Translations under genes and position numbers: made by a program
Part shown: piece by piece, positions 8,835-63,134 of the stretch
How the letters are laid out: every line of letters starts with the position of its first letter
Position numbering within the stretch: the stretch's first letter is position 1
The notes under the pieces: model-generated
What the model saw: the letters and a program-made list of their open reading frames with translations, nothing else
The model's database searches: none
Told to the model about the DNA's origin: nothing
NCBI GenBank assembly: GCA_951406725.2
Contig: OX597833.1
Location: 34,906,001-34,970,000, forward strand
DNA from: Octopus vulgaris
Taxonomy: Eukaryota
Direction of reading: 5' to 3'
Length of the DNA stretch: 64,000 bases

Positions 8835-8897
8835 TAATAACTGATGAGATGCCAGAGCAGACTTCAGCCACGGCATCCGAAATTCTGAGTTTTATTA
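8835..8897 (+). ncRNA. Type I hammerhead ribozyme-like motif
   Basis: taataa CTGATGA GATGCC-18nt-GGCATC c GAAA TTC t GAG T T ttatta: stem I 6 bp, stem II 6 bp, tiny stem III, GUU site. Confidence 0.7.
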
Positions 8898-9004
8898 TGA
8901 CAACCAACTAATTGTCACATACTATACATACATGCATACATGCATATATATATATATATATATATATATATATATATATATATATATATATATATATTTT
9001 AATT

Positions 9005-9375
9005 TTGCAGTCTTATTGTTACGTCTTGTTTGTGTTCGTACTCATTTTGCCCCGCTGCTTGGAATTTTATTTTAATTCTCTCGCAGGAAGGCCTATTGGA
9101 TTAGTGTTCTGTTATGCCTTCGAAACATGCCTGACTCCTCTAGCGACAGCTGATGACGGGGGTTTTGTCCTTGTGTAGCTCGTCCTGTATTTGTTTTTCG
9201 TTTTCTTGTTTTTCGTTTTCCGTTTTCTTGTTTTTTGTTTTTGGGCTTTTTCCGTTTCTACGTCTTATAGTGATGTCCTGTACTCCCGTATAATTATTTA
9301 TATATGCATGTATATATACATGTAGATGTAGGTACGTACATCTATGTTTGTTTGCATCCATATATTTTTATCTCC
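9005..9375 (+). repeat. Interspersed repeat with signature catgtagatgtaggtacgtac
   Basis: gctga.ga.gggg..ttt.ccttgtgt..gtcctg and the signature are shared with 56690-56990. The signature also occurs on the minus strand at about 14770-14795. Confidence 0.65.
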
Positions 9376-10208
9376 TCCTATATATATATATATATATATA
9401 TATATATATATATATATTGTATATATATAAATATATATATATATATATACGTGCATACACTCACACTTACTACCTTTACAACCATAGTCACCAATTTTCG
9501 GGTAGCGACTGAATATTTGATAAAAAAAAACAACAAAAAACAAAATAATAATAATAAATGAAATGAAAAAATAAAAATGAAGAAATAAAAATCAATGGTT
9601 TGTTTGTGTTGTTGAGGTGATTACAATTAGTGTTGTTCATTAGCCTGATCAAATAGACGTTTGATCGAAGCGTACAAACCCAAGTTATCCTTTCAACGAA
9701 TATATATATATATACTTCCTTTTGTAAATTGTTAACGCGCAGCAGGACAGCATTAAGCTGCTTTTTCTAGCAGTTGGTGCGACCATGTAGAGGCTTCTTC
9801 GACAGTTCAACGCAATTGTCGTTAAATTTTGGGGTGCGGTATAGTAGCGGCGATGATGCTAAATGTAATTGGAGTTTATGGTACAATAGTAATGAAAATG
9901 GGAGCGGAGGTGATTGTATATTGTTGTTGTTGTTGCAGGTGATGGTGGAGGTGGTCTTAGGAATAGTTGTGGTTAACGATGTAGTTGTGTGCAGACGATG
10001 ATGATAATAATAAGTGTTAAGTGTGAATAAATGAGAAGGATTGTCTGTTTTATTGCGGTTGTTGTGTGTAATGGTGCAAGTTGATGTGGTTAGTGAAAGT
10101 AAATGATGGGGAGGTGATGTTGAGGTGGATGCGGTTTTAGAGGTACTTTAAGGGATGGTTGTGGTTGTCCTCATAGAGCTGACTGATGCGGTTAAGGGCT
10201 GCCGTTGA

Positions 10209-10446
10209 GGCGGTGAGCTGGCAGAAACGTTAGTACGCCGGGCGAAATGCTTAGCGGTATTTCGTCTGCCGCTACGTTCTGAGTTCAAATTCCGCCGAGG
10301 TCGACTTTGACTTTCATATTTTCGGGGTCGATTAAATAAGTATCAGTTACGCACTAGGGTCGATATAATCGACTTAATCCGTTTGTCTGTCCTTGTTTGT
10401 CCTCTCTGTGTTTAGCCCCTTGTGGGTAGTAAAGAAATAGGTATTT
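10209..10446 (+). mobile_element. SINE family C, full length
   Basis: ggcggtgagctggcagaaacgttag (A-box-like), gagttcaaattcc (B-box), tail gccccttgtgggtagtaaagaaataggt. Confidence 0.9.
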
Positions 10447-10960
10447 GAGGTAAGTTGTTCGGCTCTAGGATAACCCTAATTGAACCAGAGCTATGATCAG
10501 TAACAACCCAACCGTGACCATCTCTTCTTTGTAGGTGTCTAACATACATTATTCAGTGTTTTGCTTTGGCTAATTTGGTAGGATTTTACTGGAGAGAGAT
10601 TTGGTCTCAATTTCTAGCACTTCGTGCGACCACGTTGAGGTTATGTTGTGTGTGTGTGTGTGTGTGGTTATTGCGTGTTATCAAGTGGAGGGTAAGAAAG
10701 GAGAAGTTGTTAAGCAATCTGACGTGGCCACCACTACGAACCAACCACAAACAGGAGCATCATAAGCCAATGAATTTTTATGCAGTCTCTGGACCTTGCT
10801 AGAAAGAACAGTCAAGTTTCTTTCAAATTACACACCACCAACATGAGAAAGGAAAGCACAATCGAAATGTCGGTCCTTGCTGGAATAATATCTTTGATCC
10901 ACAGGCCTGCTCCATCAGGGGCGACTTGGAGCTAAAAAAAACAAAACAAAAACAACAATA

Positions 10961-60080: not shown

Positions 60081-60242
60081 TATGCTATATATATATGTAT
60101 GTATATATATATATATATATATATATATATATATATATATATATATATATATATATATATATATATATATATATATATATATAAATACATATATGTATGT
60201 ATGTATGTATGTATGTATGTATGTATGTATGTATATAGATGT

Positions 60243-60445
60243 ATATGTATAGTATAGGACAATAGGTAAGTTGTCATAATAGAACTCAGAGTTTCAAATG
60301 CTGGGGCTAAGAGCTACGATGCATTTTCGTCGGCTATTTTGATAATAGACTTCTGATAGCTGACGAAGATGCTTCGTAGCTCTTAGCCCCAGCATCTGAA
60401 ACTCCTATTATGACAACTTACTGATTATCCTATACTATACATATA
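60243..60445. repeat. Divergent inverted pair of hammerhead-bearing termini (family of 8835)
   Basis: Minus copy 60279-60337: atag CCGACGA AAATGC..GCATTT GAAA CTC t GAG TT ctat. Plus copy 60356-60410: atag CTGACGA AGATGCT..AGCATCT GAAA CTC [6-nt deletion] ctat. Confidence 0.8.
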
Positions 60446-60634
60446 TAAATTCCTCTATTTACTTAATATCAAGGTTTCATTCTTTAGTTGTCATTTTATT
60501 ACTACTATTATTAATATATATATATATATATATGTGTGTGTGTGTGTGTATTTGTATATATACATGTATACATATATATGTGTGTGTGTATTTCGCGCAT
60601 GCGTATTGTTTGTGTTTGATTTTCTCGACTACAC

Positions 60635-61797
60635 AGTATAGTAGGGTCAGCTGGGCACCGTCTGTGCGAGAACAGCACCATGACACAATTCACTCTGGCA
60701 GAAATTGGGAAACGATACGCTGTACTGCTTGGCATTCGCGCCGGAAGCTCCAATACGATCATTTCAGAGTGTGTGGGTGTCAATCTGAGGACAGTGCAGA
60801 GAATTTGGAAAGAGTTGGATGAGTCTAATGATGATTACGAAGGTACGGCAGCTCGGAGAACGCATTATGATCGTTCTGATAAGAAAATAACTCTGAATTT
60901 ATTGGTGAGATCCAGATTATGATTGACAATGATCCTTCCAAGTCAATCAAGTTCATCGCCAGGGACATAGGAGTGTCTGAGTTTCCTATAAGGCAGGTAG
61001 TGTATGGACACAATTGATATTCTTCATACAAGATGAGAAAGGACCAATTTTTATCCCAAGCCATCAAAGACAAGTGGGAAGACTGCACTACGAAGCTTTT
61101 GAACAAACTCAAGAACCCCTCCTACCGAAAATGCTGTGGTTTTTCTCAGACGAGAAAAATTTCTGAAGGGCTCAGATGGTGACCGTACAGAACAACCGTT
61201 GGATTACTGTGTCCTCAAAACATGTACCGAGAGTGATAAAAATCAAACATCCAGTCAACATGATGGTGTTTGGAGTGATCACAAGTGATGGCGACATTAT
61301 GCCTCCATTCATCTTCTCACATGTCCTCAGTCTCAACACGGAGGCCTATATCAAGTGTCTGGAGGAGGTAATGCTGCCCTGGGTAAAGAGAGTGGCTGCT
61401 GGAAGACCCTATTTCTGGCAACCAGACTCTGCACCATGCCACACAAGCTAGAGAACCCAGTCATGGCTGTCAGACAATTTCTGCGACCACATCACACCTA
61501 ATATCTGGTCACCTAACTCCCCAGACTGCAACCCCCTTGATTATTATGTGTGGGGCGTAGTTGAACGAGAGACCAACAAAACTTTTTGTAACACCAAAGA
61601 TGAACTGAAGGCAAGGATTATGGCAGCATTCACCAACTTAAACAAGGAGACCATCCAGAAGAGTTGCAGGTTGAAGCCAATGACGATTTTATTGAATACA
61701 TTTATTCTTTAGTATTTCAAGAAACGTAATTGTGGTAAATATATCTGTGAAAATGAGATGTGTTATTTTCATTTTCCCGTAATTTAGACGGCAATTT
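60635..61797 (+). mobile_element. Decayed maT/DD37D transposon
   Basis: ATG at 60680, FSDEKNF, HPVNMMVFGVITSDG, QPDSAPCHTS..SPDCNPLDYYVWG. I count 37 residues between the second and third Asp. The 5' TIR is not seen. Confidence 0.92.
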
Positions 61798-63134
61798 ATA
61801 TATATATGCGTGCACATATTGTATATACGCATGTATGTATACACGCATATATATCTATATGTATGTAAGTATATATGTATATTTGTCTGTCTATCTGTCT
61901 GTCTATCTTTCTCTTTCTCTCTCTATATATATACACACATAGATATACATATGTATATATATATATACACACACACACACACATACATGTACACATACAT
62001 ACATATACATCCTAAAACCAATGTATGTATGTTTATATCTATCTATCTATCCATTCATCGCTTTATCTATTTGCCTATCTATATATACATACATATAAAA
62101 AGTCATAATTGAATTCTACACAAAATTGTAGTTACATACATGGAAATGATAAAAATATTTGAAAATATACAAATTTGTTTGTATTAAAATATAGATTGCT
62201 GTATCGCATATTCTTCTTTAGCGATATGTCTATCACTTATTAAGAAAATTTCTAAAAAATGAATGCACATACCTAGACTTCATCAGGAGCTACAAAGCGG
62301 AAAACACTCGCTTTTTATTATAATTATCTTTTAATATATATAACCTTGTCAAAGTTTGTAGACTTGATATCTTTTTTTCGTCTGATATATTACATTTAAA
62401 ATTATCCAAACTTGAGACTTTTAGAATGTGCGTGTGTGTGTCTGTGTGAGTGTGTGTTATACACGCACACACTCACAAACAAGCACGCAGACACACGCAC
62501 ACACACTCACACATAAATACGCACACACGCACGAAAGAAAAAAATTATAACATCCGTTTGTTGTATGGCAAAATGTCATGTCACTCTGAATCTATCTATC
62601 TATCTATCTATCTATCTATCTATCTATCTATCTATCTATCTATCTATCTATCTATCTATCTATCTATCTATCTATCTATATATCTATCTATCTGTGTGTG
62701 TGTGTGTGTGTGTGTGTGTTTGTCTGTCTGTCTGTGTGTGTGTGTCTGTGTGTCTGTCTGCCTGTCTGTGTGTCTATGTATTTGTCTGTGTGTGTCTGTC
62801 CGTGTGTCTGTCTGTCTGTCTGTCTATCTATCTATCTATCTATCTATCTATCTATCTATCTATCTATCTATCTATCCATCCAGCCATCCGTCTTTCTATC
62901 CGTCTATCTGTCTATCTATCTATCTATCTATCTATCTATCTATCTATCTATCTATCTATCTATCTATCTATCTATCTGTCACTCTGTCTCTGTTTGCCTG
63001 CCTGTCTTTTCTTTCTGTCTGTTTTTCTATATACCTTAATAAACGTATTCACGTACATAATAAATATGTGTAGTAGCAGCAGCAGCAGCAGTAGTAGTAG
63101 TAGTAGTAGTAGTAGTAGTATTAGTAGTAGTACT

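Follow-up and report, generated by a model that had tools for sequence, protein, structure and literature searches.

Putative truncated ends of Penelope-like elements and a predicted permuted hammerhead ribozyme in microsatellite-rich DNA of Octopus vulgaris

This report concerns a 64,000-nucleotide stretch of Octopus vulgaris DNA (contig OX597833.1, positions 34,906,001 to 34,970,000; hereafter the window), in which small islands among microsatellites carry hammerhead ribozyme motifs. With a probability of about 0.8, these islands are the 3′ ends of 5′-truncated Penelope-like elements (PLEs) of some ten families, accompanied at 9050–9161 by a predicted self-cutting ribozyme of Naiad type. The class of the type I hammerheads is already published for Octopus, in the element Hydra-1_Obim, and these motifs add taxon detail only; the permuted motif at 9050–9161 outweighs them. 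Its proposed four-block form, with a stem II strand placed upstream and a helix after CUGAUGA, would be one not yet described.

Type I hammerheads and the islands that carry them

The window is AT-rich eukaryotic DNA in which simple-repeat masking covers 14519 of 64000 bases, and a few short interspersed repeats in many copies are scattered through it together with transposon fragments. The initial annotation had named 15 intact or decayed type I hammerheads. The set is found in place and is real and above chance as a whole, with three members broken or partial. A strict yes/no descriptor, obtained by relaxing the published one (core CUGANGA or UUGANAA, loop II of at most 60 nt, gap of 2–8 nt in stem III), gives 7 matches compared with 0.30 in dinucleotide shuffles, a comparison proposed with the initial annotation; 0 of 150 shuffles get to 7, and the reversed window gives 1. 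A weighted descriptor, with weights chosen after the motif sites were known, gives 7 matches at a score of at least 25 compared with 0.10 on average over 100 local dinucleotide shuffles. One of these matches, at 41401 on the plus strand, was rejected as a false fold, arising where the 41471 palindrome is read on its other strand. The junction word GAAACCGGT occurs 4 times in the window where 0.21 are expected by chance. Traits typical of PLEs and lying beyond the descriptor are also present, namely a U3-A8 core (5 sites), a palindromic stem III and an extra base between positions 9 and 10.1. Core-like words with no consistent stems, at 30234 on the plus strand and in the region near 62290, were rejected as hammerheads.

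Three results tell against taking these motifs as PLE hammerheads. The published minimal hammerhead (min-HHR) descriptor, with GAAANNUH and a loop II of 3–10 nt, finds 0 matches in the window; longer-palindrome variants outside it are also described in the same paper (PMC4209133; here and below, statements on published work refer to the accessible portions of the sources). Rfam gives 0 window matches at the gathering score and, among the listed 150 of 675 matches, only microRNA families driven by microsatellites. Folding energy beats shuffles for just 1 of 14 motifs and so gives no support. These unexceptional energies, and the failure of the weakest sites (36974 and 59157) to pass alone, are what speaks for chance matches in low-complexity DNA. 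Set against the shuffles, none of which reaches the observed count, and against the excess of the junction word, that explanation is scarcely credible and is refuted for the whole set, although it may still apply to those two weakest sites.

The islands are read as truncated 3′ ends because of the TA tracts on their 3′ side, the inverted pairs, the ragged 5′ starts and published PLE anatomy. Over 14 sites (41775 was left out, and the sites are not independent of one another), the median distance to the nearest (TA)n tract on the 3′ side is 132.5 nt versus 781.5 nt for random unmasked positions (p=0.001). On the 5′ side closeness to (TA)n is not significant for these 14 sites (p=0.06), and the earlier description of islands bounded by such tracts thus stands for the 3′ side. 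The next microsatellite is 31–196 nt from the motif in 13 of the 14, and the island measures 91–445 bp in 13 of the 14, which bears out the proposed size of 80–450 bp; the exception, 17543, sits in a 1801-bp island. A downstream AATAAA, said to accompany several motifs, lies within 120 nt of 2 of 14 sites compared with 11.8% of random stretches, and enrichment is unsupported. Members of a sequence group share their 3′ side and begin at differing 5′ points, one of them inside the ribozyme. Inverted pairs, a PLE hallmark (PMC8557442), are found at 60242–60445 and 36869–37183. In the literature, all but one of the Hydra-clade PLEs in File S1 are listed with a preference for (TA)n (Craig et al. 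2021, PMC8557442), their hammerheads lie ~30–150 nt from the 3′ end as computed from the coordinates of File S2, and Hydra-1_Obim of Octopus bimaculoides is among the hammerhead-bearing members. For O. vulgaris, 31 recently active PLE families have been reported, with ribozymes mentioned 0 times in the accessible text (PMC13282606).

A route to such islands can be proposed. In one PLE studied in vitro, AT-rich nicks are where reverse transcription begins, at a point downstream of the hammerhead, and insertion does not require hammerhead cleavage (PMC11167929). By extension from this and from PMC8557442, the GIY-YIG endonuclease of the element would nick AT-rich DNA, and the reverse transcriptase would start shortly downstream of the hammerhead and usually stop early. 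Each insertion would leave a stub of 80–450 bp, in some cases in the form of an inverted pair, within a TA tract that was already present. Given the palindromic stem III words seen here, self-cutting by the type I motifs would require dimers in tandem transcripts, and solo genomic copies are probably inert.

A further point against this reading is that no link between an island and a PLE open reading frame (ORF) was found in the window or in the listed loose ends of contigs. The lone PLE coding fragment, at 53718–54521 on the minus strand, is a decayed PLE-type reverse transcriptase (RVT_1, E=0.0027) joined to no hammerhead; it has 623 relatives at E≤0.001, with a GIY-YIG match in 2 of the 10 relatives scanned, and at 53717 it is interrupted by a Tc1/mariner-like inverted-repeat element. 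A tblastn search with 150 of these relatives, and a relaxed run with the 10 longest, returned this fragment as the only PLE ORF of the window. A word-based protein search with the fragment gave no match, and five window junction words are not present in the accessible part of the Craig supplement (PMC8557442). The initial proposal of PLE termini or derivatives therefore fares well in origin and (TA)n targeting, which fit anatomy and literature; it falls short in the ORF link, and non-autonomous families remain hypothetical.

The same missing link could point to a different source, in which the islands are complete non-autonomous, retrozyme-like units that move via short ribozyme-cut RNAs. Two metagenomic sequences discussed below, L005 (1–1061) and L006 (1–1109), are ORF-free tandem units of ~960–970 bp with one permuted, four-block motif each, and a PLE-end origin of retrozymes has been put forward (preprint 10.64898/2026.07.22.740005). 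However, no window island is tandemly repeated, and group copies with a common 3′ side and differing 5′ starts are what truncation predicts. Such an origin is improbable, and truncation of PLEs remains the preferred account of the islands.

It was also proposed initially that the elements may seed the microsatellites, with TA tails added or expanded at insertion, and the TA tracts do adjoin the 3′ side of the motifs. However, of the 103 TA tracts just 23 have a hammerhead site within 300 nt and 80 lie farther from every site, so that seeding could account for a minority at most. In addition, TA flanks several islands on both sides, the pattern expected when an element inserts into a tract already present, and (TA)n is listed in the literature as a target preference (PMC8557442). 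Seeding is thus unsupported, and creation of the microsatellites by these elements is very improbable. A separate observation bears on microsatellite origin. At 46448–48243 lies the 3′ end of a long interspersed nuclear element (LINE; zf-RVT, E=1.5e-08), with a tail that is partially repeated in tandem and terminates in (TATC)n tracts, and this is a better candidate for seeding than the hammerhead islands.

A permuted motif at 9050–9161 and its relatives

The island at 8998–9298 (plus strand), likely a Naiad-type PLE 3′ end, lies between TA tracts and holds the permuted motif and a U-rich tail; its motif was not among the sites of the initial annotation. The motif at 9050–9161 (plus strand) is hammerhead-like and non-circularly permuted, with its blocks in the order S-G-C. 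It opens with the 5′ strand of helix IV (9050–9054), hairpin V (9055–9086) and the 5′ strand of stem II, which stands upstream of the S block (9087–9092). There follow the S block (9104–9113, with H17 at 9108 and a predicted cut after it), the G block (9116–9128, GAAA at 9122), the C block (9145–9156, CUGAUGA at 9150) and the 3′ strand of helix IV (9157–9161). Pairing is 5 of 5 in helix IV, 4+5 in hairpin V and 6 of 6 in stem II, with 4 pairs in stem III (one G-U), 5 in stem I (one G-U) and 7 of 10 in an extension of stem III. With the non-palindromic stem III and the 2-nt link between stem I and stem II seen here, the RNA would cut as a monomer after 9108.

Relatives were sought with a pattern that constrained nothing beyond the core words and a portion of stem I, and it returned six metagenome loci. 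In L005 and L006, the four helices outside the search pattern score 39 and 41.5 compared with 20 ± 3.9, values reached by 0 of ~2000 shuffles. Among 32 sequences scored, this helix test was passed by the window, L005 and L006 alone; the other four metagenome loci (L001–L004), 22 of 22 viral loci and the scored prokaryote loci failed it, and one of the four prokaryote loci, L031, misfitted the scoring pattern and was left unscored. Pairs were counted from fixed anchors because MAFFT misaligned the three permuted motifs. The upstream strand of stem II starts 20 nt before U16.1 in all three, and with the strand so placed 6 of 6 pairs in the window are Watson-Crick, a result equalled by 38 of 200000 shuffles; helix IV with hairpin V is equalled by 18 of 5000. 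Stem II differs between the window and L006 by three changes that involve both sides of the helix, and stem III by two. Helix IV joins stem II directly in L005 and L006 and via a hairpin in the window, and the link from stem I to stem II is 3 nt in the former and 2 nt in the latter. Neither L005 nor L006 has an Rfam match. A stretch of L006 near 128–160 may resemble the start of a hepatitis delta virus-like ribozyme. Together, these comparisons make a conserved fold well supported; enzyme activity is predicted from sequence.

Several observations reduce confidence in the permuted motif. It occurs once in the window, and the island has no second copy there. The descriptor made for it, written post hoc once the motif was known, finds it as the sole window site at a score of at least 22, and 4 of 141 window shuffles reach 28. 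In a free-position null, 122 of 2000 shuffles match the window motif, which is marginal when taken alone. L005 and L006, being closely related, represent a single family. In the window, direct pairing between the G block and the strand following CUGAUGA is also possible (5 bp, two of them G-U), and this would be an ordinary type-SGC arrangement.

This last point is the basis for reading 9050–9161 as an ordinary published type-SGC hammerhead, or else as a structured RNA signal that does not cut, such as a site bound by the element's own protein; for the latter it can be added that PLE insertion in vitro proceeds without hammerhead cleavage (PMC11167929). In L005 and L006, however, direct pairing amounts to 2 bp compared with 6 bp for the upstream strand, and the catalytic core, U16.1-A15.1, H17 and G10.1-C11.1 are kept in all three sequences. 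We therefore regard an ordinary or non-cutting element as somewhat unlikely and prefer the four-block ribozyme. The island has no ORF, and no Rfam hammerhead family was found at 8756–9298. The final 15 nt of the island are weakly similar to each arm of the inverted pair at 2921–3049 (blastn E=2.3).

The assignment to Naiads comes from the published consensi of File S5 (PMC8557442), in which the last 260–350 nt of 46 of 54 sequences were inspected by eye only; the comparison between these ends and the window was thus visual, and this too lessens the weight of the assignment. The four-block layout was seen in 7 of the 46 ends (Bfor, Amil, Aacu, Anas, Obim, Ovul and Esco), representing four independent lineages from ctenophore, coral and cephalopods, and the layout of the TA-flanked island at 8998–9298 matches these seven. 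Some have flaws: Bfor has a short stem I, Esco has bulges in stems II and IV, and Obim has a helix IV of 4 bp. Fully paired type-CSG motifs were seen in six nematode ends (1, 2 and 3_Nbra, Hcon, Hpol and Asuum), which brings the total of non-circular hammerheads to 13 of 46; the other 33 show no complete motif in the stretch inspected. In the nematode CSG motifs, a helix flanks the C block. In the arthropod Naiads Ptep, Smim and Dst, the C block follows a C run and is helix-flanked, and some of these ends have GAAA upstream; this may be a further permuted form.

Naiads have been reported to lack canonical hammerheads, with several ends annotated ‘HHR_core’ or ‘HHR_half_core’ (PMC8557442), and type CSG has been published from two metagenomic sequences only (PMC10085705). 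Scrambled block order is a likely reason why these elements were reported as hammerhead-free. We consider it fairly probable that many Naiads carry non-circular hammerheads (CSG in nematodes; four-block in ctenophores, corals and cephalopods) that would be active as monomers and the first in animal genomes and in retrotransposons. No literature linking non-circular hammerheads to PLEs was found in a search whose coverage ended short of subscription journals. If this is true, Naiads, which are among the most abundant PLEs, do not spread without hammerheads, the reported view is corrected, and the case for hammerheads as dispensable passengers of PLEs is weakened. It would also mean that CUGAnGA is separable from its stem II strand, against the published assumption, giving an added hammerhead topology, and that non-circular permutations move from environmental sequence into animal genomes. 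As an RNA, the permuted motif measures 110 nt and has a predicted site of cleavage.

Individual sites and neighboring elements

By blastn, the 15 sites fall into 10 sequence groups. The count of at least eight families given initially thus holds, and ‘unrelated’ was overstated, as two junction signatures are common to groups (U3-A8 with ACCGGU, and ACUC-W-GAGU). Seven of the 15 pass the strict descriptor (8835, 15198, 17543, 37960, 40973, 41775 and 52341), and 60279 does so once C is permitted at position 4. Four others (37698, 14989, 15505 and 41471) score 21.5–25.3 in spite of defects in the core or a stem. The UUGANAA core of five sites, initially called decayed, is the published U3-A8 covariant known from schistosome PLEs (PMC4209133). 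Stem III is palindromic, at a fraction of 0.67–1.0, in 12 of 14 core-bearing sites; 36974 and 60356 fail.

Group A is represented at 8835–8897 (plus strand; intact core, palindrome ACUC-U-GAGU with one change) and by the inverted pair of ends at 60242–60445, which has hammerheads at 60278–60338 (minus) and 60356–60411 (plus), the latter with a 6-nt deletion running through stem III. Group B comprises 14987–15032 (minus; decayed core with CCGACAA and GAGA, stem I of 8 bp) and 37698–37733 (plus; C at position 4, in a 91-bp island with TA on both sides). Since the group B pair shares C at core position 4 (CCGA), this may be a family-level variant, not decay. Group C contains U3-A8 hammerheads at 15198–15237 (plus; palindrome with one change) and 17543–17578 (plus; outside any small island), as well as the 3′ half of a motif at 33666–33688 (plus; GAAA, the ACCGGU palindrome and a stem I strand), where the element is truncated within the ribozyme.

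Further U3-A8 motifs lie on the minus strand at 41471–41509 (perfect ACCGGU, weak stem II, stem I shifted by one base), 52340–52384 (perfect ACCGGU, stem I of 6 bp) and 36971–37003, which is decayed, has lost U16.1 and stem I, and lies within the inverted pair 36869–37183. A weak, decayed U3-A8/ACCGGU remnant with no stem I, absent from the initial annotation, is found at 59148–59182 (minus) in the inverted structure 58977–60080. A minimal hammerhead with an ACGU palindrome and a single core mismatch is at 15505–15540 (minus). On the plus strand, 40973–41063 has a long stem II and an intact core, and 41775–41814 has an intact core, an extra base, then a 5-bp stem II and a short stem I.

The best-preserved hammerhead, at 37956–38024 (plus), has a 9-bp stem I and the palindrome ACAG-G-CUGU. 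Contigs of four public sequencing runs were placed on 37946–38222, numbering 530 (run X1), 296, 26 and 6, and their summed depth, which is no copy number, suggests a multicopy family. Seven of eight variant places in the motif fall in loop II or in the unpaired center of the stem III palindrome; the eighth, from one low-depth contig, disrupts a stem III pair. That variation in this family largely spares the core and the stems speaks for the preferred reading. One variant in the family restores a U-A pair in an extended stem II. Two contigs, from a run guessed to be RNA, span the predicted cut, though contigs cannot show ends. Nearby, 38132–38186 has 20–30x the summed depth of the hammerhead part, with loose ends on both sides. 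It is a terminal module common to other repeat families and, judged by eye, has two hairpins; a likeness to 35971–36129 was not confirmed by blastn.

More inverted pairs with no clear hammerhead lie at or between microsatellites (2921–3049, 30214–30430, 32762–33038, 35971–36129 and 58977–60080) and may be inverted PLE ends or miniature inverted-repeat transposable elements. The inverted-repeat element interrupting the PLE fragment spans 53145–53717, and a Tc3-type transposase fragment lies at 31335–31790 (E=6e-12). Two perfect inverted copies of 420 bp, at 1235–1654 and 2173–2592, enclose a TA tract and reflect either a very recent event or an assembly artefact.

Comparison with known systems

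The window motifs resemble the minimal hammerheads of type I known from metazoan PLEs (Cervera and De la Pena 2014, PMC4209133) in type I order, a CUGANGA or U3-A8 core, a short palindromic stem III and an extra base before stem II, as well as in their mostly solo copies, opposite-strand pairs 100–700 bp apart and high family diversity. They differ in that most window palindromes (6–9 nt) or loops exceed the published descriptor and in that the window motifs are known without an attached ORF. With Hydra-clade PLEs (PMC8557442) they share the (TA)n target, a hammerhead near the 3′ end and odd palindromes such as ACUC-N-GAGU, a junction common to groups A and B and several members of the clade; Hydra-2_Amil and group B have identical stem I and III letters by eye. 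On the other hand, the hammerhead of Hydra-1_Obim is matched by no window group, File S2 is without U3-A8 cores in its accessible part, and the islands carry no reverse transcriptase for clade assignment.

Non-LTR (long terminal repeat) retrozymes (PMC7229834; preprint 10.64898/2026.07.22.740005) resemble L005 and L006 as ORF-free tandem units with one motif each. The head-to-tail tandem arrangement of retrozymes is found in L005 and L006 only, whereas the window islands are solo or in inverted pairs, and retrozymes are described with type I, not permuted, hammerheads.

The island at 8998–9298 shares with Naiad PLEs (PMC8557442) the (TA)n target and, by eye, the block order and helices of seven ends. 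The accessible text on Naiads describes no permuted fold, and the island has no ORF, so that its membership is a likely assignment. Lastly, types SGC and CSG (Eckert et al. 2023, PMC10085705) provide the closest published topology: the S-G-C order and the conserved core recur in 9104–9156, L005 and L006, and the link between stem I and stem II is similarly short (~3 nt published, 2–3 nt here). In published type SGC, the strand immediately following CUGAnGA forms stem II and the blocks are taken as indivisible, whereas 9050–9161 would form stem II from an upstream strand and has an extra helix after CUGAUGA.

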